A stretch of DNA of 64,000 bases from Vicinamibacterales bacterium. Its GTDB lineage: Bacteria; Acidobacteriota; Vicinamibacteria; Vicinamibacterales; JAMQPK01. The notes beneath the pieces are model-generated. The model was not told the DNA's origin. It searched no databases and worked only from the letters and a program-made list of their open reading frames with translations. The stretch's first letter is position 1, and the number at the start of each line of letters is the position of its first letter. The stretch spans positions 24,666 through 88,665 of the forward strand of contig CAVUTO010000020.1 in the NCBI GenBank assembly GCA_963744405.1, in the 5' to 3' direction. The position numbers and the translations under genes were made by a program. Shown here one piece after another: positions 2,988 through 64,000 of this stretch.

Positions 2988-3180
2988 CGGATTAGGGATC
3001 AGGGATTGGGGATTCTGGATTGGCCGTCACGTCGTCCGTAAAACGATCGCCGGATTTCTGCTGATTCTCCGGACCCGAATGGCGGCGCATCGCCTCGGCG
3101 ATCATGCGAATGCTCTCAACGAGCAGCAGAAAGGCTTTCAATCTCCCAATCCCCCAATCTTCCAATCTTCCAATTCCGAT
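2988..3180. repeat. Inverted simple repeat (AGGGATTGGGGATT arm / CCAATCTTCCAAT arm)
   Basis: GGATTAGGGATCAGGGATTGGGGATTCTGGATTGG at about 2990-3025. The imperfect complement CAATCTCCCAATCCCCCAATCTTCCAATCTTCCAATTCC is at about 3139-3178. Confidence 0.75.
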
Positions 3181-3290
3181 GAGTTGTCCTGGACGGCGGA
3201 CACGGGGTGCTTCGTTTCGCAGAATTGCCCGGAATTATCAGCCATTTTCGGCGGCATGACGGTTGCACTCAAGACCGCACGGAGGTGGCC

Positions 3291-3950
3291 ATGGCTTTTC
3301 GATTTGCGCTTGCTCTCGTTCTGACGGTCTCGGCATTCTCGCTGGATGCGTCCGCTCAGCGAGGCAGGGGATATGGATACAGCGGCATCACGGTTTACGA
3401 GCATCCAGATTTCCGCGGAGACAGCATTACGTTGCGCAACGAAGTGCCAGACCTGCGGCAGCATGGGTTGAACGATCGGATCAGCAGCCTCGAAGTCGAC
3501 GGCAACCAGGCATGGGAGGTTTGCCGCGACGTCAATTTCGGGGGAGGGTGTCGCGTGTTTCAGGGAACGATCGACGACCTGAGAGCCGAAGGCTGGAACG
3601 ATCGCATCTCCTCGATGCGCGCGGTCGGATTCGTGCGGGGCAACAACGGCCGTGGATGGGGCTGGGGCAATCAACGAGGCAACACCAACTACCGTCAGTC
3701 GCGCCTTGTGCTCTACGATCGTCCGAACTTCCGAGGCGACGCGCGCGACGTCATGAACAACGCGACCAATCTGGGATCCACGGGCGACCGAGCCCGCAGC
3801 GTGCAGGTCCACGGCGGCGCGTGGGAGCTCTGCGAAGGTGCATCCCGCGACTCGCGCTGCGTCACGGTGAGCGAGGACGTTGCGGATCTGCGCAACCTCG
3901 GGCTTCGCAATGGCGTGACGTCGGCGCGTGAGGTCAGAAGGAATTGGTAG
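3291..3950 (+). CDS. Secreted beta/gamma-crystallin-like two-domain protein
   Basis: Start moved to ATG 3291, with GGAGG just upstream. Signal peptide MAFRFALALVLTVSAFSLDASAQ. Two copies of the motif hYEHPDFRGDS / LYDRPNFRGDA, each followed by a DRISS-type strand. Confidence 0.8.
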   Translation: MAFRFALALVLTVSAFSLDASAQRGRGYGYSGITVYEHPDFRGDSITLRNEVPDLRQHGLNDRISSLEVDGNQAWEVCRDVNFGGGCRVFQGTIDDLRAEGWNDRISSMRAVGFVRGNNGRGWGWGNQRGNTNYRQSRLVLYDRPNFRGDARDVMNNATNLGSTGDRARSVQVHGGAWELCEGASRDSRCVTVSEDVADLRNLGLRNGVTSAREVRRNW

Positions 3951-4048
3951 ATTGGGAGATTGGAAGATTGGAAGATTGGAAGATTAAGAAGACACTGAGG
4001 CTTTTCGTAATCTTCCAATCTACCCATCTTCCAATCTACCAATTCTTT
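3941..4048. repeat. Inverted simple repeat (TTGGAAGATTGG type) between convergent genes; likely bidirectional terminator hairpin
   Basis: Left arm is GAATTGGTAGATTGGGAGATTGGAAGATTGGAAGATTGGAAGATTA. Right arm is TAATCTTCCAATCTACCCATCTTCCAATCTACCAATTC. The outer 15 nt are perfectly complementary. No U-tract. Confidence 0.7.
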
Positions 4049-8081: not shown

Positions 8082-8914
8082 CCGGGTTGTTCAGCCCGTC
8101 GAGCCGCAGGACCATGCAGGCGACGGCGACGCTGGCGTTACCCTCGCCGCGGCGGTCGCTGCGCATGGTGCAGCGCAATCTGTTGGTCTACAAACACACA
8201 TGGATGGTGATCGTATCGGGGTTCTTCGAGCCGCTGTTCTATCTGCTCGGCATCGGTCTCGGTCTCGGGTCGATGGTCCCGCCAATCGACGGCGTAAGCT
8301 ACAGCGCTTTTGTCGCGCCGGGCCTGCTCGCGTCGAGCTGCCTGAACGGGGCCATTACTGACGGGTTTTTCAACATCCACTTCAAGCTGTACTTTCAGAA
8401 AACCTACGACGGCATCCTGGCCACACCCATGCGCGTGGGCGACGTGGTGTTCGGTGAGATGTTGTGGGCGCTCGGGCGCGGGTCGCTGTATGCAGCAGCC
8501 TTTCTTGCGGTGGTCTTGATGATAGGCCAGGTATCTGGACGACCGATGCTGCTCTCGCCGTGGGCGCTCCTGGCGTGGCCGGCAGCGGTGCTCGCCGCGT
8601 CTGCGTTTTCGGCCATGGCAATTTGTTTGACCACGTTTGCGCGCAAGGTGCAGGACTTCGACACCGTGATGGGCTTGCTCGTGATGCCGATGTTTCTCTT
8701 CAGCGGCATCTTCGTTCCTGTCACGCAGTTTCCGCTTCCCGTTCAGTGGATCGTGCGGGCGACGCCGCTGTACCACGCGGTCGGCCTCCTGCGACAGCTT
8801 ACAACCGGCAGCGTCAGCATCGCCATCGTCGAGCATCTGGCCTATCTCGCGGTCGCGGGGTTCATCGCATTCTGTGTCGCGCTGTACAGGCTGGAGCGAA
8901 CATTGATCAAGTGA
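8078..8914 (+). CDS. ABC-2 type transporter permease (second)
   Basis: GTG 8078 overlaps the previous stop (GTGA). Contains RMVQRNLLVYKHTWMVIVSGFFEPLFYLLGIG. Alternative ATG near 8114. Confidence 0.85.
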   Translation: MTGLFSPSSRRTMQATATLALPSPRRSLRMVQRNLLVYKHTWMVIVSGFFEPLFYLLGIGLGLGSMVPPIDGVSYSAFVAPGLLASSCLNGAITDGFFNIHFKLYFQKTYDGILATPMRVGDVVFGEMLWALGRGSLYAAAFLAVVLMIGQVSGRPMLLSPWALLAWPAAVLAASAFSAMAICLTTFARKVQDFDTVMGLLVMPMFLFSGIFVPVTQFPLPVQWIVRATPLYHAVGLLRQLTTGSVSIAIVEHLAYLAVAGFIAFCVALYRLERTLIK

Positions 8915-8931
8915 TGCTGAACGCGCCTGCA

Positions 8932-9150
8932 CCAGTATTTGCTGTCTCGACACAGAGGCACGGAGCCGCAGAGAAATTCATGTCTCGTTAGTGCATCGAC
9001 CTCGTGGGCCGCGAACGCGGCCCACGCCGCGCGAAGAAGGCGTGACGAATACAAGAGCCACCCGTGCAAACGACTCTTGATATTCGTCACGCCTTCTTCG
9101 CGCGGTGCGCCATGGCGCGAGGTCGATGCTCGCCTCTGTGCCTCTGTGTC
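8932..9150. repeat. Nested palindromic element E1 (four-way-junction-like core 8993-9129)
   Basis: - Conserved 26-mer CCAGTATTTGCTGTCTCGACACAGAG at 8932-8957.
- Stem A 8993-9004 / 9118-9129.
- Side hairpins 9006-9023 and 9107-9118.
- Central stem about 9029-9057 / 9074-9104.
- Outer stem 8949-8965 / 9134-9150. Confidence 0.8.
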
Positions 9151-9162
9151 AAAGTACAACCG

Positions 9163-9864
9163 ATGTTGTTTCTGATTATCGGTGTAGCGGTGACGGCCCT
9201 CGCCCACATGTGGCCGGCGCCGTTTGTCATCGATTGGATGGCTGGCGATCGCGCCGTGTGGGCCATGCCGCGAACAGATAAGCCGACGGTGTATCTGACG
9301 TTCGATGATGGACCGAATCCATCGACGACCCCCGATCTGCTCGACGTTCTAGCCGCCGAGGGCGCGCACGCGACGTTCTTCGTCATCGACGAGCATCTGC
9401 ATGACGAGACCGCGCCCATCGTGAGGCGCGCGTTCGAAGAGGGGCATGCTGTCGCGCTCCATTCATCGACGCGGCGCCCGATGCTGATGACTCCGAAAGA
9501 GCTCGGGCGCATGCTCCGCGCCGCTGCGGACCGCATCGAGATGCTCGCAGGCGGTACGCCGTGCCGGGCGTTCAGGCCGCATGCCGGCTGGCGAAGCGGG
9601 CAGATGTACATCGGACTCCGGGAGGCGGATTACCAGCTGATCGGGTTCGGCTGGATGCTGTGGGACTTCAACTGGTTCCGCGCGCGAAGCGCGGACAGTT
9701 CGGTCCGACGTATTGCTCCGCGCGTCTCCGACGGCGACATCATCGTGATGCACGATGGTGATGAATCAGCGCCGACACGAGACCAGCGCCATACGGTGGA
9801 TACCGTCAGACGGCTGATTCCGCAGCTCCGTGCACGGGGATTTTCGTTCGGGACCGTGTGTTGA
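9163..9864 (+). CDS. Polysaccharide deacetylase (NodB homology domain)
   Basis: Motifs TVYLTFDDGPNP, ATFFVI and HSSTRRP. Start moved to ATG 9163 (MLFLIIGVAV, TM anchor) because table ORF start 9064 lies inside palindromic element E1. Confidence 0.85.
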   Translation: MLFLIIGVAVTALAHMWPAPFVIDWMAGDRAVWAMPRTDKPTVYLTFDDGPNPSTTPDLLDVLAAEGAHATFFVIDEHLHDETAPIVRRAFEEGHAVALHSSTRRPMLMTPKELGRMLRAAADRIEMLAGGTPCRAFRPHAGWRSGQMYIGLREADYQLIGFGWMLWDFNWFRARSADSSVRRIAPRVSDGDIIVMHDGDESAPTRDQRHTVDTVRRLIPQLRARGFSFGTVC

Positions 9865-10559: not shown

Positions 10560-12062
10560 ATGACAACGCGCGCCGTAGACGCCGACTTTCTCTCGCTGCC
10601 CCTCGATCGCCTCGCCGACGTTGCTCTGCAGATCGCCAGTCAGCGCGGCGCCACGTACGCCGACTTCCGCGTCGAGCGCCTTCGCAGTCACATCATCGTC
10701 GCACGCGATCGAGAGCTGCAGACGTCGGTCGAGAGCGAGACGGTAGGGTTCAGCGTGCGCGTCGTCGCGAAAGGCGCGTGGGGGTTCGCCGCGGGCATCG
10801 ATCTGACGACCGAGGCTGTGTCCGCCGTCGCGAGGCGTGCCGTCGAAGTCGCGGAAGCGCTCTCGCCGCTCAACACCGAGCCCGTTGTGCTGGCCGGCGA
10901 GCCCGTCTACAACGACACTTACGTGTCGAGCTACGAAATCGATCCCTTCGCTGTTCGCGAAGATAAGAAGATCGATTTTCTGCTCGCACTCAACGATCGC
11001 GCGCTCGCATCGAAATTGATCGACCGCGTCACCTCGCATGTCATGCTGGTCCGCGAGCAGAAATACCTGGCCTCTCTTGCGGGGTCGCGCATCGTCCAGC
11101 AGCGTGTTCGCGTGAAAGGGGACCTGACCGCCGTGCGCATCGACAAGGCCACTGGCGCCTTCGAGACGATGGGAAACGCGGCGCCGCCGGCCGGGAAGGG
11201 ATGGGAGTACTTCACGACGGGGTACGACTGGGAAAAGGACGCCGACGAGATTCCGTCGCTGTTGGAGCAGAAGATGGCGTCGCCCTCCGTCAACCCAGGC
11301 CGTTACGACATCGTCGTCGATCCGACCAACTTATGGCTCACGATTCACGAGTCGATTGGCCACTCGACCGAGCTCGACCGCGTGCTCGGATACGAGGCGA
11401 ACTACGCGGGCACATCGTTCGCAACGCTCGATAAACTCAACACTCTGCAATTCGGCGCGCCGATGATGCACGTGACGGGTGACCGCCAGGTCGAACATGG
11501 GCTGTCCACCGTCGGCTATGACGACGAGGGAGTGGCGGCGCAGACGTGGGATATCGTCCGCGACGGCGTGCTCGTAGGCTACCAGCTCGATCGGCAGATG
11601 GCGCACAAGCAGGGATTCGGGCGTTCCAACGGCTGTGCGTTCGCCGATCAGGCCGGCCGAGTGCCGTTGCAGCGCATGCCGAATGTGTCGTTGAGCGCCG
11701 GCGCCGAGCCCACTACGCTGACCGACCTCCTGTCGCGCATGGGCGACGGGCTCTACATCGTCGGCGACAAGAGCTGGTCGATCGACATGCAGCGCTATAA
11801 CTTTCAGTTCACGGGGCAGAAGTTCTTTCAGGTGCGCGGCGGAAAAGTCGTCGGGCAGGTCAAGGACGTGGCGTATCAGTCGCGCACGACTGATTTCTGG
11901 AACTCCATGGAAGCAGTTGGCGGGCCGTCGACCTACGTGTTGGGTGGCGCGTTCAATTGCGGCAAAGGTCAGCCCGGTCAGATCGCACCCGTCTCGCACG
12001 GGTGTCCTGCCGCGCTCTTTCGGCAGGTCAACATCCTCAACACCGCGCAGGAGGGGTCCTGA
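10560..12062 (+). CDS. tldD: Metalloprotease TldD (peptidase U62)
   Basis: 500-aa ORF with HESIGHSTELDRV (HExxxH) and overall TldD-like sequence. Followed by the partner PmbA gene. Confidence 0.92.
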   Translation: MTTRAVDADFLSLPLDRLADVALQIASQRGATYADFRVERLRSHIIVARDRELQTSVESETVGFSVRVVAKGAWGFAAGIDLTTEAVSAVARRAVEVAEALSPLNTEPVVLAGEPVYNDTYVSSYEIDPFAVREDKKIDFLLALNDRALASKLIDRVTSHVMLVREQKYLASLAGSRIVQQRVRVKGDLTAVRIDKATGAFETMGNAAPPAGKGWEYFTTGYDWEKDADEIPSLLEQKMASPSVNPGRYDIVVDPTNLWLTIHESIGHSTELDRVLGYEANYAGTSFATLDKLNTLQFGAPMMHVTGDRQVEHGLSTVGYDDEGVAAQTWDIVRDGVLVGYQLDRQMAHKQGFGRSNGCAFADQAGRVPLQRMPNVSLSAGAEPTTLTDLLSRMGDGLYIVGDKSWSIDMQRYNFQFTGQKFFQVRGGKVVGQVKDVAYQSRTTDFWNSMEAVGGPSTYVLGGAFNCGKGQPGQIAPVSHGCPAALFRQVNILNTAQEGS

Positions 12063-13420: not shown

Positions 13421-13498
13421 TCGTCACTTCATTGGAAGATTGCTAGATTCGCAGATTGGAAGATTGTTTCCAGATTGAGGATTGCCTGATTGCAGATT
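13421..13498. repeat. Simple repeat (TTGGAAGATTG / CAGATTG type)
   Basis: CATTGGAAGATTGCTAGATTCGCAGATTGGAAGATTGTTTCCAGATTGAGGATTGCCTGATTGCAGATT fills the pmbA-adh spacer. Confidence 0.75.
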
Positions 13499-14688
13499 AT
13501 GACGGATATACGCGTGCTTACGGGCGACGGTTCGATCGATCGGCTTGGCGCGCTGGCAAAGGAACTGGGGTTTTCGCGGACGTTGCTCGTCGCCGATGCG
13601 GGGCTTGTCAGGGCCGGGCATCTCGAGCACGCGCACGCGTCGCTCGAGGGGGCCGGCGTGAACGCGCTCGAGTTCAGTGACTTCGGACCGAACCCGGATG
13701 CCGACATGCTCAATGCGGGCCGGCGCTACGCGGCAGGTAAGGGCATCGACTCGATCATTGGCCTGGGGGGCGGCAGCTCGCTCGACTGTGCCAAAGGGAT
13801 CAACTTTCTGCTGACGCAGGGGGGAGTCATTCACGATTTCCAGGGATACGCGAAAGCGACGAAGCCGATGTTGCCGATGATTGGCGTGCCGACGACTGCG
13901 GGTACGGGCAGCGAGGCGCAATCCTACGCCATCATTTCCGATCCCGCCACGCACAGGAAAATGGCGTGCGGCGATCCGAAGGTGGCATTCCGCGCGGTCA
14001 TCCTCGACCCGCGTCTCACGTTGACGCAGCCCGCATCGGTGACGGCTGCCGCCGGCTATGACGCCATCGCGCACGCGGTGGAAAGCTTCGTCTGCACGAA
14101 GCGGAATCCGCGATCGCAGGAGTTGTCGCTCGAAGCGTGGCGGCTGCTCGAGAGGAACTTCGAGCGCGTCGTTGCGGCGCCCGACGATCTCGAGGCTCGG
14201 GCCGCCATGCAATGGGGAGCGTTTTATGCCGGTACGGCGATCGAACTCTCGATGCTCGGCGCGACCCACGCCTGCGCAAATCCGCTAACCGCGCGGTACG
14301 GCACCACACACGGCAACGCCATCGCAATCCTGCTTCCGCACGTCGTCCGGTGGAATGCCGAGGCCGCAGAATCGCTGTACGCCGACCTGCTGCGTGTGTC
14401 GACCGCCCCCAGCGCCCCCAGCGCCCCCAGCGCCCCAGCGCCCCTAGCGCCCCCAGCGCCCCTAGCGCCCCCAACGCCCCTAGCGCCCCCAACGCGTGGG
14501 CGCTTGCCACGCGCCTGTCACAGCTCGCGTCCGCTGCCGGATTGCCGCGGACACTCGCCGACGCGGGCGCCTCTGCAATCGACCTCCCGGCGCTCGCCGG
14601 CGAAGCGGCCGGGCAGTGGACCGGCACGTTCAATCCGCGCCCATTCGACACGAAAGGGGCGCTGGAGATTTATCAATGCGCACTCTAG
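13499..14688 (+). CDS. Iron-containing alcohol dehydrogenase, frameshifted inside a 9-bp tandem repeat (possible pseudogene or indel error)
   Basis: - N-terminal 300 aa (GLGGGSSLDCAKG, Fe-ADH fold) lie in the frame of table ORF 13490.
- The conserved C-terminus (LATRLSQLASAAGLPRTLADAG..NPRPFDTKGALEIYQCAL) is in the frame of ORF 14137..14688.
- The switch is at the C-run 14433-14436. Confidence 0.85.
14404..14492 (+). repeat. Tandem repeat, 10 units of CGCCCC(C/T)A(G/A), encoding (SAP)n
   Basis: Units read directly: three CGCCCCCAG, one 8-nt CGCCCCAG at 14431-14438, then CGCCCCTAG/CGCCCCCAG/CGCCCCCAA alternating to 14492. Confidence 0.95.
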
Positions 14689-20911: not shown

Positions 20912-21231
20912 GGGTGGCTCATGATAGCAACAACTGCGAATTCAAAGATGAACAGGAGATGAGGAGATCAGGGAGGTAGGAATCGCTCGGCTTCGTTTCT
21001 TCGTGGTCAGGCTCCAGCTCGTGTGGGCTGGAAAGCGCTGCCGAGCAGTCCGCCTATTGCGCCATGCACGCGCCGATCGTTGTCGCCACCAGGATCTTGA
21101 ACGCGACTGCGTCACGTAGTGGTAGTTGATGAAGGCTCGCAGGCTGTCAGACCCGCTCGCGCGAAATTGCGCCATCAGGTTCTGCCAATCCAGTCTGTCG
21201 GTCAGCGACTCGAGGAAGGATCTTAGAGTAC

Positions 21232-22136: not shown

Positions 22137-22372
22137 CCAGTATTTGCTGTCTCGACACAGAGACACAGAGGCGCAGAGAACGATCTCTGCGGGGAGCGTC
22201 AGAAAGCTTTGCGTTATGCATCGGCTTTTGCGCCGAAGGCGCGCTGGAAGAGACGAAGCGACAAATACAAGACTCGTCTCTCTTGTTTGGATCTTGTATT
22301 TGTCGCTTCGTCTCTTCCAGCGTCGGCCGTCTGACGGCCGACAAAAGCCGATGCTTCGTCTGCGTCTCTGCG
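22137..22372. repeat. Nested palindromic element E2 (four-way-junction-like core 22218-22354)
   Basis: - Identical 26-mer at 22137-22162.
- Stem A 22218-22230 / 22342-22354 (13 bp).
- Hairpin GCGCCGAAGGCGC at 22230-22242.
- Perfect 29-bp central stem 22244-22272 / 22292-22320.
- Hairpin 22322-22342. Confidence 0.85.
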
Positions 22373-22428
22373 TTGAATCATCACTCGCGTTCCTCTTGAT
22401 CTTCTGATCTCCTGTAATTTTGTGTGTT

Positions 22429-25529: not shown

Positions 25530-25534
25530 CGCTG

Positions 25535-25693
25535 TGGTTCTGGGTGCTGGGTGCTGGGGTTCTAGGTTCTGGTTCGGGGTTCTGGGTTCTTGGTTCGCCG
25601 ATCGAACCCGCGGACCTGAAACGCGAACCTAGAACCAGAACCCCAGAACCAAGAACCGGAACCTCAGAACCCCAGAACCTAGAACCCGGAACC
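25535..25693. repeat. Long inverted simple repeat (GGTTCTGG / CCAGAACC), second complete copy
   Basis: Left arm 25535-25597, right arm 25625-25693. Occupies the whole spacer between the stop at 25529 and ATG 25696. Confidence 0.85.
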
Positions 25694-40107: not shown

Positions 40108-40116
40108 GGCGAATAA

Positions 40117-40164
40117 GGGGTCGGGAGGGTTTTCCTTCGACGCCGCGAAAACCCTCCAGACCCC
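40117..40164. terminator. Bidirectional hairpin between convergent propeller genes
   Basis: GGGGTCGGGAGGGTTTTC (40117-40134) pairs with GAAAACCCTCCAGACCCC (40147-40164), followed by TTTTATTTT. Confidence 0.7.
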
Positions 40165-40167
40165 ATT

Positions 40168-41490
40168 TTATTTTCCGATCGCGATTACCGCGTCGTCGGT
40201 GCGGATGAAAATTCGTCCACCAGACACGGCCGGCGAGGCAAGTTGTCGGGCGTTCAGCCGGTTCCGCGCGAGAACACGAGGGTTCTGTCCCGCGGAGAGC
40301 ACGATTGTCTGGCCATCCTCGCTCAACAGATAGATTTTGCCGTCGGCTGCAACAGGCGACGCGGTGAAAACGCCACCCGTTCGTTCCTGCCATACGCGCT
40401 GTCCGGTGCGTGCATCGATAGCACTCAGGACACCCACGTCGCCCGCCATGTAGAGCAGTCCGTTGTAGTGGACGAGCGACGAGACGTATGGCGCGCCCGT
40501 GTCGACGCGCCACGTGACGTGGCTCTTGCTGACGTCGCCCTTGCCCCCCGGCCGAATGGCCATGTACGGTCCGCTGCGGTATCCGCGGCTCGTGTAGATC
40601 GTGCCCTCGTGGAAGACAGGCATCGGTATCGGAAAGCGATTTTGCTCCTGAATGTGCCACAAGAGCTCGCCGGTTGCTGCATTGTGCCCGCTGACGCCTT
40701 CGCTCGAGTTCACGATCAGCTCGTGGGTACCGCCGGACTGGACAACCAGCGGTGTGCTGTAGGAGTTGAAGCTGCCGCCGCGATCGACGCGCCACTTCGT
40801 CTTGCCTGACGCCGTATCGAGGTTCAGCAGGTACGAATCGGTATCGTGATAGCAGATCAGAATCAGCGAATCGTTGAAGATCGCAGGCGAGCTGCTGTGG
40901 CCCCAGTTGATGTTGAACGGCGCGTATTCCAGGCCCAGATGCCGCGACCAGACGAGCTTGCCGGACATGTCGAGCGAGACGATCTGGCCCGTGCCGAACC
41001 ACGCGTAGACGCGCCGGCCGTCGGTAACCGGACTCGACGAGGCGAGATTGTGCTTGTCGTGCACCTCGGCGAGTTGTCCCTCTGCCGGCAGTTCGTACTC
41101 CCACACCTTGCGGCCATCGACGCGGTTCAACGCCGTGACGAGAAACACGACTTTGCCAGTGGCAGCTGCGGGGCCGCCACCGAGCGCGCGTTCTCCGGCC
41201 TCAGATGGATTACCGCCCTGCACGAGCGTCGGATGGTTGCCGGCTCGCCGAGCGCTGCGCCCGATCTGCGATGTCACGAACACGTGATCGCCCCACACGA
41301 TAGGCGACGAAATGCCGAGTCCGCGAACCGATGCTTTCCAGGCGACGTTCTCCGTGTCGCTCCAGCGCTCGGGCAAACCGGTTTCAGTGGAGACGCCCGT
41401 CGACGCCGGGCCTCTCCAATGCGGCCAATTGTCGGCGCGCACTTGCGCGAACGGCAGCACACACATCACGGCGAGAGCGAAGAGTCTCAT
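40168..41490 (-). CDS. PQQ-like beta-propeller repeat protein P4
   Basis: 440-aa ORF with signal peptide MRLFALAVMCVLPFAQVRA, NWPHWRGPASTG, ENVAWKASVRGLGISSPIVWGDHVFV. Confidence 0.9.
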   Translation of the reverse strand: MRLFALAVMCVLPFAQVRADNWPHWRGPASTGVSTETGLPERWSDTENVAWKASVRGLGISSPIVWGDHVFVTSQIGRSARRAGNHPTLVQGGNPSEAGERALGGGPAAATGKVVFLVTALNRVDGRKVWEYELPAEGQLAEVHDKHNLASSSPVTDGRRVYAWFGTGQIVSLDMSGKLVWSRHLGLEYAPFNINWGHSSSPAIFNDSLILICYHDTDSYLLNLDTASGKTKWRVDRGGSFNSYSTPLVVQSGGTHELIVNSSEGVSGHNAATGELLWHIQEQNRFPIPMPVFHEGTIYTSRGYRSGPYMAIRPGGKGDVSKSHVTWRVDTGAPYVSSLVHYNGLLYMAGDVGVLSAIDARTGQRVWQERTGGVFTASPVAADGKIYLLSEDGQTIVLSAGQNPRVLARNRLNARQLASPAVSGGRIFIRTDDAVIAIGK

Positions 41491-45496: not shown

Positions 45497-45535
45497 GAAT
45501 TGGAAGATTGGTAGATTTAGATTGCCAGATTAGAA
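45497..45535. repeat. Simple repeat (TTGGAAGATTGG type)
   Basis: GAATTGGAAGATTGGTAGATTTAGATTGCCAGATTAGAA fills the spacer. Duplicated and expanded at 48542-48597. Confidence 0.8.
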
Positions 45536-48541: not shown

Positions 48542-48597
48542 GAATTGGAAGTTTGAAGATTGGTAGATTGGAAGATTGGTAGATTGCCAGATTAGAA
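48542..48597. repeat. Simple repeat (TTGGAAGATTGG type), expanded copy
   Basis: GAATTGGAAGTTTGAAGATTGGTAGATTGGAAGATTGGTAGATTGCCAGATTAGAA. Confidence 0.8.
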
Positions 48598-49493: not shown

Positions 49494-49546
49494 CCACGAG
49501 GCACGAAGACAGATCACGAAGGCGCGAAGACGCGAAGTCGAATGCT

Positions 49547-49731
49547 GAACACGATGACACGACGACACGATGAGCACGATGACGGACAAGGGATGACGGC
49601 CGGACGCAAACCGTGCGGTTTGATATCTTCAGCTAATTTTGATTGGGCAGGTGGTCCGCCTGAAGGGACACTACCGTCGCTCTTCGCGTAGAGCTTCATC
49701 GTGTCATCGTGCTCATCGCGTCATCGTGTTC
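49547..49731. repeat. Long inverted simple repeat (CACGATGA arm / CATCGTG arm) enclosing a REP-like hairpin
   Basis: Left arm GAACACGATGACACGACGACACGATGAGCACGATGAC (49547-49583). Right arm CATCGTGTCATCGTGCTCATCGCGTCATCGTGTTC (49697-49731). Confidence 0.75.
49653..49674 (-). repeat. REP-like hairpin, degenerate copy (GTAGTGTCCCTTCAGGCGGACC on minus strand)
   Basis: Plus strand reads GGTCCGCCTGAAGGGACACTAC. Two stem bases are missing relative to the other copies. Confidence 0.6.
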
Positions 49732-49934
49732 GGGTGTTCTTCGAGCGCGTCGTGTCGGCTAACGTAATTCTGCGGTGGGTCCTCGCCATGGCGGCCGCTG
49801 GGACAGGCGCATGAGTGACGAGCTTGCTCAGGCGCTGCGCGCGCTGGAGGAGGAGCTGCATAAGCCTGAGACGCGGCACGATCAGACGCGTATAGCGTCT
49901 TCATGTCGGCGTGATTTTCTGATGGAGTACCCCA

Positions 49935-50359: not shown

Positions 50360-50404
50360 ATGAGTTTCGCGTCTTCGCGCTCGTCGAGTCTTCGCATTTA
50401 GCGT

Positions 50405-50482
50405 TCATCGTGCCATCGTGCCATCGTGCCATCGTGCTCGTCGTGTCATCGTGACCAACCACCAACCACCCACCACCAACCA
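50405..50482. repeat. Simple repeats (CATCGTGC x4, then CCAACCA type)
   Basis: TCATCGTGCCATCGTGCCATCGTGCCATCGTGCTCGTCGTGTCATCGTGACCAACCACCAACCACCCACCACCAACC. Confidence 0.85.
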
Positions 50483-50963: not shown

Positions 50964-51027
50964 TGGTTCTGGGTGCTGGGTTCTAGGTTCTTGGTTCTGG
51001 ATCTACGTTCTCGGTTCCCGGTTCGGT
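50964..51027. repeat. GGTTCTGG-type simple repeat, single arm
   Basis: GGTTCTGGGTGCTGGGTTCTAGGTTCTTGGTTCTGGATCTACGTTCTCGGTTCCCGGTTCGG. Confidence 0.8.
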
Positions 51028-57934: not shown

Positions 57935-59190
57935 GGGACTACTCTAGGGACTAGGGATTGGGGATTGGGGATTAGAAGGGCGGCGGCGCTGATGGCGCTG
58001 ACCGTCGCACCAAGAGTGTAGAACATCGCGGCGTAGCTACCTGTCGTCTCCACACACACCGCAAGCAACAGCGGCCCGACCGCGGACGCCAGCACAGTCA
58101 TTGCTTGTGCGACCCCCTGGATACGGCCCAGTTGGCGTCGGCCATACACACGCGGCCAGACGCTGAAGAACAACACCATCACGAGACCGCCGCCGAGCCC
58201 CATCATCACGGCCCAGACCAGCGCCTGTGTCGTTGAGGTGACATGCGGAAGCGCGAGCAAGCCCGCCGCCAGGATCAGGAGCGACATCGCCATCAATCGG
58301 TTCAGCGGGACGGAGCGGGCGAGCCAGCCGCCGATGAAATTTCCGGCGAGGCCGGTTATTGCGGTCACGACCAACGTCTGGTAATAGACGTTCGGTCCGA
58401 GACCGCGCTCGGACAGGATCGATTCGTTGAACAAACCGATGCCCGATGCGACCAGACCGTAAAGGGCTGCGCCGACGGCAAACACCCAGAACGCGGGGGT
58501 GCGCAGGGCGTCGTGGAGTGTATAGCCGTGCGGTTCCAGGTTCTGGGTGCTGGGTTCCGGGTTCTGGTTCGGGGTTCTGGGTTCTGGGTTCGCACCATCT
58601 GCTGCGAGGCCGATCGATTCCGGACTGCGCCGCACGAACAACAGCGCGAACGGCATCAAGCCTGCCAGAATCGCCGCGCCGACGGCAAACCACGCGACGC
58701 GCCAGCCGCGCGACTGTACAAGCGAGCCCACCGCCGGGAACGCGATCATGAAACCGACGCTCAGTACGACGCTGTAGATCGCCATGGCCACGTCGATGCG
58801 TCGAACGAACCACTGTCCGACCATGGTGATGCTCACGACCGACAACGCGCTCTGGCCAAGCGCGCGCGTCAGCGTGACGGCCACAGCGAGCTCCGCGAAT
58901 GTCGTGACGCGGCTCATCAGCACGACCGTCACACCGAGCGCCGCGGCTATAGTGCACAGCACGATCCTGCTTCCAAGTCGATCGATGAAACGGCCGACGC
59001 CGATTGCGCCCGCGGCGCCGATGAGCGTGGCCCAGAGATTGAGCTGCGCGTAATCAACGCGGCCGATGTCGAGGTCGGCGAGAAGAGGCTCGGTGATGAG
59101 CCCCAGCCCCTGTGTGCGCCCTGGCAGTGTGCCGACCATCGCGGCCGATGCCATCAACAGCACAACCCAGCCGTAGTAGACACGCTTCAC
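57931..59190 (-). CDS. MFS transporter (oxalate/formate-antiporter-like layout)
   Basis: 419-aa ORF with 12 hydrophobic segments. GTG start overlaps the mscS-like stop (GTGA). Central loop carries a repeat-derived insert. Confidence 0.88.
   Translation of the reverse strand: MKRVYYGWVVLLMASAAMVGTLPGRTQGLGLITEPLLADLDIGRVDYAQLNLWATLIGAAGAIGVGRFIDRLGSRIVLCTIAAALGVTVVLMSRVTTFAELAVAVTLTRALGQSALSVVSITMVGQWFVRRIDVAMAIYSVVLSVGFMIAFPAVGSLVQSRGWRVAWFAVGAAILAGLMPFALLFVRRSPESIGLAADGANPEPRTPNQNPEPSTQNLEPHGYTLHDALRTPAFWVFAVGAALYGLVASGIGLFNESILSERGLGPNVYYQTLVVTAITGLAGNFIGGWLARSVPLNRLMAMSLLILAAGLLALPHVTSTTQALVWAVMMGLGGGLVMVLFFSVWPRVYGRRQLGRIQGVAQAMTVLASAVGPLLLAVCVETTGSYAAMFYTLGATVSAISAAALLIPNPQSLVPRVVP
57938..57975. 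repeat. Simple repeat (AGGGATTGGGGATT type) overlapping the 3-prime end of the MFS gene
   Basis: CTCTAGGGACTAGGGATTGGGGATTGGGGATTAG encodes the last residues (..IPNPQSLVPRVVP) of the minus-strand MFS ORF. Confidence 0.8.
58532..58592. repeat. GGTTCTGG-type simple repeat inside the MFS coding sequence (in frame)
   Basis: GGTTCCAGGTTCTGGGTGCTGGGTTCCGGGTTCTGGTTCGGGGTTCTGGGTTCTGGGTTCG translates on the minus strand as ANPEPRTPNQNPEPSTQNLEP, in the central loop. Confidence 0.85.
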
Positions 59191-61152: not shown

Positions 61153-61322
61153 ATTGATGAGTATATCGCCATGACTTGGAACAGGAGGGTAGGAGGATAG
61201 GAGGCGAGACCCAGCCCCATCAGTGCGGCGCCGCATCAAGAGAACGCGCGAGACATCCGAGTGACAGCGAGCCGGACCAAGACAACGAGGAACACAGATG
61301 ACATCACGGAGGCACGGGCGCC

Positions 61323-61460
61323 GCGTCGAGCGGACGCCGAAGGCGTCTCGCGAGAAAACACAGACGAAAAAACAAGACTGCCTGGATATCGAACGGTCTT
61401 GCATTTTTCGTCTGTGTTTTCTTGCGAGGCCGGCCGCTTCACGGCCGGCCAGCTCGACGC
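61323..61460. repeat. Nested palindromic element E3 (four-way-junction-like core)
   Basis: - Stem A 61323-61331 / 61452-61460.
- Hairpin GACGCCGAAGGCGTC at 61333-61347.
- Central stem about 61347-61378 / 61396-61428 (a few mismatches).
- Hairpin GGCCGGCCGCTTCACGGCCGGCC at 61428-61450. Confidence 0.8.
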
Positions 61461-61632
61461 GCCGCCGCAGAGCCGACTGACGCCGCCCACAGAGGAGCAG
61501 AATGCCTCCGCGCGTCCTCTGTGCCTTCGTGTTGAGACCAGGATCGTTGCGCGTGGTGCCGTCAATGAGGTTATGAAGCCGCTCTTAATCTTCGACGCTC
61601 CTGTTTTAGGTCTGAGAGCAGTTTGAGCCCTA

Positions 61633-62708: not shown

Positions 62709-62785
62709 CAGAAGATCGGAAGGTCAAAAGATCAGAAGAGCGGCAGATGTTTTCGAAAAGACTCTCCTGATCTCCTGATCTTCTG
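62709..62785. repeat. Inverted simple repeat (GATCAGAAG arm / CTGATCTCCTGATC arm)
   Basis: CAGAAGATCGGAAGGTCAAAAGATCAGAAGAG (62709-62740) versus CTCTCCTGATCTCCTGATCTTCTG (62762-62785). Related units occur at 20950-20980 and 22392-22414. Confidence 0.7.
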
Positions 62786-63931: not shown

Positions 63932-63955
63932 GTCCGGCTGAAGCCGGACACTACT
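63932..63955 (-). repeat. REP-like hairpin (GTAGTGTCCGGCTTCAGCCGGAC on minus strand)
   Basis: Stem GTCCGGC/GCCGGAC with loop TTCA. Lies 13 nt upstream of the cupin ATG, with GGAGG in between. Confidence 0.8.
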
Positions 63956-64000
63956 TTCTACGTTTCACTTTCTACGTTTCACTTTCCACTTTTTACTTTC
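63951..64000. repeat. Simple repeat (CTTTCTACGTTTCA / CTTTCCACTTTTTAC type), runs off the window end
   Basis: CTACTTTCTACGTTTCACTTTCTACGTTTCACTTTCCACTTTTTACTTTC contains a 15-nt unit repeated twice. Confidence 0.75.

Follow-up and report, generated by a model that had tools for sequence, protein, structure and literature searches.

Repetitive extragenic palindromes (REPs) and bacterial interspersed mosaic elements (BIMEs) are known from Enterobacteria, Pseudomonas and other bacteria as non-coding, GC-rich, palindromic sequences that lie between genes, mainly convergent or co-directional ones, and that form mosaics of modules in alternating orientations. The roles proposed for them are stabilisation of mRNA 3' ends, termination and protein binding (PMC3733652, PMC2817692). 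The same sequence features are shared by an element present in three copies in a 64-kb stretch of DNA from a bacterium of the Vicinamibacterales (contig CAVUTO010000020.1; the whole stretch is referred to as the window), the core of which folds into a four-way junction. The element has no coding capacity, and searches of the literature on palindromic repeats of Acidobacteria, nested palindromes, four-way-junction repeats and its heptamer strings yielded no description of it; it represents a previously undescribed family, found after genes in soil Acidobacteria (Vicinamibacterales). The strand-symmetric compensation in this family favours a REP/BIME-like structural repeat over an RNA gene on one strand. 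Our preferred reading, to which we tentatively give a probability of roughly 45%, is a mosaic palindromic repeat family of Vicinamibacterales that acts through its structure, whatever its orientation, at the 3' ends of genes.

The resemblance to REP and BIME sequences is incomplete. A REP unit is a single hairpin of 20-40 bp, has an unpaired GTAG or CGTC tag and occurs in hundreds of near-identical copies, whereas the unit here is a four-way junction of 131-138 nt with fully paired ends, its copies are strongly diverged with a hypervariable central stem, and it is nested in arms of tandem heptamers. CGTC is present in GCGTCGAC in about half of the copies, but within a stem. REPINs, the inverted REP doublets mobilised by RAYT transposases and thought to act as folded single-stranded DNA, are also long hairpins of inverted units in which arm pairing is kept; in contrast to them, the element has no GTAG tag, is branched rather than a simple doublet and is not represented by a set of near-identical copies in the 64-kb window. 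Bacterial miniature inverted-repeat transposable elements (MITEs) with extensive secondary structure, such as Correia/CREE, ERIC, RUP and BOX, share with it a size of about 100-250 nt, a non-coding and intergenic character, terminal inverted repeats (TIRs) and co-transcription with neighbours in either orientation. They have target-site duplications, a related parent insertion sequence (IS) and uncompensated differences; here, neither the core nor the outer module is bordered by direct repeats, a terminal structure of the classical MITE type with a recognisable parent IS was not found, and the differences are overwhelmingly compensated. The inverted terminal repeats (ITRs) of parvoviruses such as adeno-associated virus (AAV) form T-shaped three-way junctions at the ends of linear replicons, and their flip and flop forms arise from terminal resolution; hairpin-loop inversions are also seen in the non-coding DNA of chloroplasts. 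The AAV ITR offers an analogy only: it too measures about 140 nt, nests small palindromes within a closing stem and has asymmetric inner parts that flip and flop, but the elements described here are internal to the chromosome and form a four-way junction. Acido-1 (RF01686) and Acido-Lenti-1 (RF01687) have been put forward as structured RNAs in Acidobacteria (PMC2864571). The window contains no match to either model, and Rfam 15 gives no match at the gathering score, none at E <= 5 on the whole window and only chance-level matches to microRNAs and small RNAs (sRNAs) at E <= 10 on the 301-nt region 8900-9200. This agrees with an earlier reading of the bare sequence (the original prediction), which had noticed the three copies and could place them in no known family.

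The three cores lie at 8993-9129 (copy 1, 137 nt), 22218-22354 (copy 2, 137 nt) and 61323-61460 (copy 3, 138 nt), exactly where the original prediction had put them. In each, a closing stem, a GC hairpin, a central hairpin of about 30 bp and a second GC hairpin meet at a junction with virtually no unpaired bases. Folding gives closing stems of 12, 13 and 9 bp in copies 1, 2 and 3, within the predicted range of 9-13 bp. The long central stem, also predicted, is perfect over 31 nt in copy 2 (22242-22272/22292-22322) and over 25 nt in copy 1 (9027-9051/9081-9105), and is 96% complementary over 25 nt in copy 3 (61347-61371/61404-61428). The minimum free energies (MFEs) of the cores are -107.6, -99.9 and -94.9 kcal/mol (z = -14.3, -15.2 and -11.5; none of 200 shuffles is as low), and the opposite strands are equally stable (-109.6, -99.3 and -92.7 kcal/mol). 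The same folds calculated with DNA parameters reach -57.6 to -70.3 kcal/mol (z = -10.6 to -16.4). A sliding-window fold of the whole window, which has a G+C content of 62.8%, ranks the three cores as the three most stable 150-nt stretches, and an unfiltered covariance-model scan finds no fourth copy in it. A purine-rich left arm of the central stem had been noted as a common feature; it is present, but it is uninformative, as a palindrome automatically shows it on both strands.

Copies from outside the window were obtained from two sources. Twenty-seven related stretches of metagenome-assembled genomes (MAGs) were collected through homologues of the symporter encoded next to copy 2, and an inverted-repeat screen of these loci identified a fourth copy of 135 nt (L020:21005-21139; L-numbers denote the related MAG loci and the soil contigs) in the Vicinamibacterales MAG MFD05747.bin.2.1. 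A covariance model built from the three window copies and this one (R1) detects just those four copies in 648 kb. Metagenome contigs were scanned with a pattern taken from the conserved 3' half of the core, TCTTGTWTT N19-26 CGCC NNN GGCG N5-8 CGAYGC, which returned 60 contigs, all from soil. On these, R1 finds 40 full-length cores at 92-125 bits, and at least eight more copies are cut off by contig ends (L035, L073, L066, L041, L075, L062, L037 and L060 end inside the element). The original prediction had recommended a covariance-model search for further copies; outside the window, the family now numbers one copy in a MAG and at least 40 full-length copies in soil metagenome contigs.

The resulting 44 copies were aligned under the guidance of the model (alignment A6), which replaced structurally imperfect MAFFT alignments. 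Because the search pattern fixed 22 positions, conservation of the 3' half, and partly of its pairing partners, is by construction, and the copies are phylogenetically related, with some orthologues among them; the pattern placed no constraint on the hypervariable central stem or on the invariant GGCCG/CGGCC block in the first hairpin. The core measures 131-138 nt in all copies and has four helices: the closing stem, with the consensus GCRTCGAC...GTCGAYGC; the first hairpin of 9 bp, which contains the invariant block; the central hairpin of about 30 bp, hypervariable in its lower part with a conserved, AT-rich apex (GAATACAAGA/TCTTGTATTC); and a second small hairpin of 5 bp, GCGCC-NNN-GGCGC. 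Standard pairs fill 96.9% of the paired cells, compared with 78.7% after shuffling and 35-49% with slid partners, and 448 cells are changed on both sides against 121 in the shuffles. Covariation is seen in 32 of the 55 pairs and in 21 of the 23 pairs of the central helix, many of which show three or four pair types in comparable numbers. RNAalifold, unaided, returns the same four-way junction (-99.3 kcal/mol, with a covariation term of -11.5). The single-sequence MFE structures, which are free of any alignment, contain the junction in 39 of the 44 copies when scored by script, and the other five, judged by eye, differ by a closing-stem mismatch only. The compensatory changes that had been claimed for the window, suggestive on three copies, are firmly confirmed on this alignment.

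Many apical loops of the central hairpin have in common a motif (C/T)GGAT(N0-2)TCG, in either orientation. Examples are CCAGGATCGTGTAG, GGGATTTCGAACC and GGATATCGAGC; the motif is seen at 61379-61395 of the window and in L089, L088, L059, L032, L072 and L071. The apical loop is not a random sequence.

A structure selected in one RNA strand should contain far more G·U than A·C pairs, since an A·C on one strand is a G·U on the other. The 2411 paired cells of the alignment comprise 2295 Watson-Crick pairs, 42 G·U pairs on the model strand and 35 A·C pairs. We take this parity to mean that pairing is kept equally on both strands. The original prediction had left open whether the element was a structured RNA or a structured DNA of the MITE or REP type; that it is structured and of conserved length is borne out, and the evidence favours the side of a strand-symmetric DNA palindrome.

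Orientation is equally unfixed, with inversions at three nested levels: the loop, the core, and the leader together with the core. The three window cores had been taken to be co-oriented on the + strand, which proved incorrect: by hairpin order, loop and alignment, copy 1 (+) corresponds to copy 2 (-) and copy 3 (-). This arrangement gives 76% mean column identity with few gaps, as against 70% and long gaps when all three are read on +, and the covariance model separates the two orientations at 120-132 versus 62-74 bits (copy 1, 120 on + and 70 on -; copy 2, 131.8 on - and 74.4 on +; copy 3, 120.4 on - and 62.4 on +). By their flanks (26-mer and heptamer arms), copies 1 and 2 lie on + and copy 3 on -; in copy 2, the core therefore runs opposite to the leader and the 26-mer of the same element. 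The asymmetric leader TTTCTCTGYGGGCNGCGTMAGRGGGCTCCGYGG is conserved and, according to a strict regular expression, stands 5' of the core in 15 copies and 3' and reverse-complemented in 11. At the level of the loop, cores that are otherwise 89-92% identical have apical loops that match solely as reverse complements, as between copy 3 and L072 (score 9 versus -4) and between L088 and L084 (8 versus -4). At one orthologous site, between genes for a membrane protein and a deacetylase, leader and core of L004 are inverted with respect to L020 and L003.

The core is the tip of a longer palindrome, the arms of which are tandem repeats of 7-8 nt (CACAGAG, CGCAGAG, CACGGAG, CACGAAG, CAGAAGA). The core limits were right in the original prediction, but the whole elements are larger, extending over about 8932-9161, 22137-22379 and 61286-61539. 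In several copies, the outer module has TIR-like ends, TGTCTCGAC.../...GTCGAGACA, at times with a one-sided extension, CCAGTATTTGC, and the outermost layers are again repeats, for example (CAGGAGA)n/(CTCCTGA)n and (GCAGATT)n. By a neighbour heuristic based on G+C at third codon positions (GC3), 16 copies lie between convergent, 8 between tandem and 2 between divergent genes, and the neighbours are unrelated housekeeping genes; mapping genes over the whole window by GC3 gave too much noise to be useful. The window elements start 17 (copy 1), 7 (copy 2) and about 90 nt (copy 3) past stop codons.

The family is widespread but patchy. A model built from the 44 copies (R2) detects a single copy, that of L020, in the 604 kb of related MAG loci, compared with three copies in the 64 kb of the window. 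Three window proteins, looked up as exact sequences, have no match in a protein collection; the closest protein homologues of the window reach 87-91% identity and belong to soil metagenomes or to MAGs labelled as Vicinamibacterales or Acidobacteria. No match to the element was found in plasmid and phage collections.

On the preferred reading, that of a REP/BIME-like repeat acting at gene 3' ends, either strand would fold into a very stable branched hairpin once transcription enters the element. Such a hairpin could protect or define the 3' ends of transcripts and could insulate neighbouring, often convergent, transcription units. The perfection of the arms would be maintained by selection on both transcripts together with template-switch (quasipalindrome) correction at the DNA level, and the latter process would also account for the inversions. 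Several observations weigh against this reading. The role at the RNA level is one that we infer. The element has no U-tract or terminator consensus, and ordinary terminators consisting of an A-run, a stem and a T-run exist in the same window (40112-40169), so that a role in termination is not needed. Close relatives (L001, L021, L008) lack the element at the same sites. The metagenome copies were chosen with a pattern that itself accounts for conservation in 22 nt of the 3' half, and relatedness among the copies, some of them orthologous, applies here too. Finally, the junction, the invariant blocks and the asymmetric leader seem too elaborate for a roadblock and hint at a specific protein partner.

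The alternative that survives best, although we consider it unlikely, is a non-autonomous mobile element of the REPIN or MITE kind. A structure-specific enzyme, for example an HUH/Y1 transposase (RAYT or IS200/IS605 type) or a recombinase, would recognise the core or the whole composite module in the form of a folded single strand of DNA or of a cruciform, and would copy or move it into hairpins between genes. Dozens of copies at unrelated loci would be explained in this way, as would the contigs that break inside the element, as repeats do, the patchiness among relatives (three copies in 64 kb versus one in 604 kb), the TIR-like outer ends and the invariant stem blocks, which suggest recognition by a protein. 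The cores of L072 and L043 are 96% identical and their flanks diverge outside the outer stem, and L003 has, at the copy 2 site, a clean 'empty' joint, GCGTCGACGC, where the core would be. However, target-site duplications, sought at the element ends as the original prediction had suggested, are absent: the closing stem is an inverted repeat, the ends beyond GTCGAC are inverted rather than direct repeats, and the only direct repeat is the self-complementary GTCGAC. The joint in L003 was considered as an empty target with a target-site duplication and rejected, because GCGTCGACGC is equally well explained as the product expected of a deletion that joins the two copies of GTCGAC in the closing stem, and L004 shows partial internal deletions at the same sites. 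GCRTCGAYGC sites number 21 in 927 kb, and only one, the L003 joint, stands in the context of an element. Mobility is also hard to reconcile with the lack of near-identical paralogues in the window, where the three cores have only 76% mean column identity, and with persistence at orthologous sites. No transposase was seen beside any copy, including among the annotated genes adjoining the three window copies, although no systematic search, for RAYT or otherwise, was made.

The comparison of orthologous sites, where the flanking proteins of the relatives are about 74-90% identical to those of the window, indicates that the elements are old residents that decay by deletion. At the copy 1 site, the core is intact in the window, and L004 keeps the outer arms and a 26-mer-like end, with the closing arm reduced to a remnant. 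At the copy 2 site, again intact in the window, L003 keeps the outer arms and the leader on either side of its joint, the core of L004 is internally deleted, and L021, L005 and L008 carry other hairpins. At the copy 3 site, the intact window core has an orthologous copy in L043, L001 has a 150-nt spacer without the element (flanking proteins about 88-91% identical to the window's) and L002 has a different tandem-repeat hairpin. The latter, with (AGTCGGCAGTCT)n arms at 11880-11985, follows an extra gene of 210 amino acids (11246-11878). The site of the fourth copy, intact in L020, corresponds to 15 bp between genes in the window; L003 has kept the left half there, and L004 has lost the central hairpin. 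Deletion end points fall at microhomology or at hairpin bases.

A little less likely still, in our view, is that the core is a dedicated protein-recognition module, a DNA or RNA four-way junction (a Holliday-junction-like cruciform or a folded strand). A putative structure-specific recombinase, nuclease or nucleoid protein of Vicinamibacterales would read GGCCG/CGGCC, GCGCC/GGCGC, GCRTCGAC and GAATACAAGA, the flip-flop of loop, core and leader would be its footprint, and together with the tandem-repeat hairpins the core would form a new intergenic system based on DNA structure.

We also doubt, slightly more strongly, that the element is a functionless, self-perpetuating palindrome, in which intramolecular template switching maintains arm complementarity in the absence of selection and turns loops and inner modules round as a by-product, and which persists where it is harmless, downstream of genes. 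The symmetry of G·U and A·C counts, the preponderance of Watson-Crick pairs (2295 of 2411 cells), the inversions of loop, core and leader plus core, the end points of the deletions and the many other hairpins with tandem-repeat arms in the same genomes would all be expected of it. So would the fast evolution of the central stem. Between the orthologues in L020 and L003, the central arm is heavily different, yet the pairing in L020 is perfect; we count this maintenance in place in favour of the preferred reading, together with the shift from one-sided to compensated differences as copies diverge. The ratio of two-sided to one-sided differences climbs from 0.2 in near-identical copies to about 4-5 in diverged copies, which implies that mutation comes first and compensation or correction later. 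Instant copying from arm to arm was rejected as the sole source of compensation, since the closest copies differ mostly on one side. Against the absence of function stand the constant length and four-helix architecture over 44 diverged copies and the GGCCG/CGGCC block, invariant though not imposed by the search; the conserved leader and the recurring loop motif GGAT..TCG likewise argue that more than complementarity is constrained.

A strand-specific structured non-coding RNA (ncRNA), whether a trans-acting sRNA or a cis-regulatory element of a 3' or 5' untranslated region, transcribed from one defined strand of the core, is disfavoured and in our judgement improbable. It would account for the very strong covariation, the well-defined fold and the conserved sequence blocks, and the window elements do begin soon after stop codons with their outer ends co-oriented with the upstream gene. 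However, G·U pairs are not commoner on one strand (42 versus 35), about 40% of the typed copies have the core turned round with respect to the leader, and the apical loop flips. Tandem-gene contexts occur in both orientations, the leader strand being sense in about two and antisense in about five. Consensus scans around copy 1 detect no promoter, terminator or U-tract. The parity of pairs, orientation that is unfixed at every level, the negative consensus scans and the lack of any Rfam match together make such an RNA unlikely. Least probable by far, and already largely refuted, is a recombination site working as a folded single strand, of the integron attC or Xer-substrate type, which would fit a structure kept while its sequence varies, right after stop codons, but which should have R''/R' core sites (RYYYAAC/GTTRRRY; the ends here are GCRTCGAC/GTCGAYGC), R and L boxes, the extrahelical bases that set attC strand choice (pairing here is perfect) and cassette arrays, whereas these copies are scattered in mixed orientations among housekeeping genes. 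Integron-integrase-like genes do occur downstream of the symporter in two related loci: inspection of the DNA by eye shows frames at about 11900-12040 of L017 and about 11850-12040 of L025 that look like integron-integrase-type tyrosine recombinases, with motifs such as VSASTQNQALCAVLFLFEVVLG and IRTVQELLGHKDVSTT.

The composite element of copy 1 (8932-9161, +) lies between an ABC-2 permease gene (stop 8914) and a polysaccharide deacetylase gene (start 9163) and consists of a 26-mer end, an arm of CACAGAG-type heptamers, the core and a complementary arm. The 26-mer, CCAGTATTTGCTGTCTCGACACAGAG (8932-8957, +), forms its asymmetric outer end; other copies of the family have related ends. The additional outer stem that had been reported was found, its 5' arm of heptamer type, GACACAGAGGCACGGAGCCG (8949-8968, +, 20 nt), being 90% complementary to the 3' arm, CGCCTCTGTGCCTCTGTGTC (9131-9150, +). 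The core, in family (model) orientation on +, comprises the closing stem GCATCGACCTCG, a large GC hairpin, the central hairpin 9027-9105 and a small GC hairpin. The element of copy 2 (22137-22379, +) is placed between convergent genes, for a PadR-linked membrane protein and a sodium:solute symporter (stops 22129 on + and 22429 on -). It is made up of the 26-mer, (GACACAGA)n, a leader hairpin (22172-22191), GCGTCAG (22196-22202), the core, in family orientation on - (type II), and a complementary arm (22355-22379). The element of copy 3 (61286-61539, -), flanked by an NHL-propeller gene (stop 61633) and a lipoprotein-like gene (start 61152), has a heptamer arm, a leader (GCGTCAG at 61483-61477), the core, in family orientation on -, and a complementary arm; with its leader 5' of the core, it belongs to type I.

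The 26-mer had been described as identical before copies 1 and 2 and as starting 7-17 nt past a stop codon, and both statements hold: it has exactly two matches in the window, at 8932 and 22137 (chance expectation 0), 17 and 7 nt past the stop. A 22-mer taken from it has no match in genome or metagenome contig collections, and the 26-mer is specific to the source genome or to unsampled relatives. Copies 1 and 2 share the 26-mer (8932-8957 and 22137-22162) and the CACAGAG heptamers without any difference, and the orthologous regions L004:20225-20385 and L003:11700-11800 have other ends and heptamers (CGCGGAG, CGCCGAG). This identity between paralogues, set against the difference between orthologues, suggests concerted evolution or gene conversion among the copies in one genome.

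Intergenic regions of the window are rich in tandem repeats of 7-8 nt that draw on a small vocabulary (GGTTCTG, ATTGGAAG, CAGGAGAT, ACACGATG, AGTCGAC, TAGGGAT and others). Such repeats occur at 1029-1104, 1947-2122, 2989-3174, 3943-4043, 13431-13466, 20953-20972, 22393-22414, 25531-25693, 45499-45531, 48544-48597, 49549-49729, 50366-50482, 50965-51017, 57945-57975, 58539-58591, 61183-61204, 62709-62785 and 63951-64000. Many runs pair with their own complement to form long hairpins directly past stop codons, and other MAG loci of Vicinamibacterales, as well as the surroundings of the soil copies, contain these units again. In the hairpin at 49546-49739, which has (ACACGATG)n/(TCATCGTG)n arms, the loop holds about 120 nt of unrelated inserted sequence; the loops of tandem-repeat hairpins seem to host various inserts, the four-way-junction core being one of them. 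This vocabulary seems to be undescribed and may be a more general phenomenon than the core. A 9-nt tandem repeat, CGCCCCCAG, at 14404-14495 (10 copies, 86% matches) has the top TRF score in the window. An intrinsic terminator of the canonical bidirectional type (an A-run, a GC-rich stem of 23 nt and a T-run) separates convergent genes at 40112-40169, and similar ones are found near position 3100-3290 in many of the related loci. The palindromic modules therefore exist side by side with ordinary terminators.

The Vicinamibacterales abound in soil, most of them have not been cultured, and their non-coding DNA has hardly been explored. The family described here is large, well defined and absent from Rfam, and the covariance models R1 and R2 allow a census of it that bears on mobility, on a protein reader and on transcript ends or genome stability. 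It provides a clean case in which very strong covariation is no sign of an RNA gene on one strand. The symmetry of G·U and A·C and the flip-flop of its modules show that palindromic DNA repeats can mimic the signatures of ncRNA in covariation screens.

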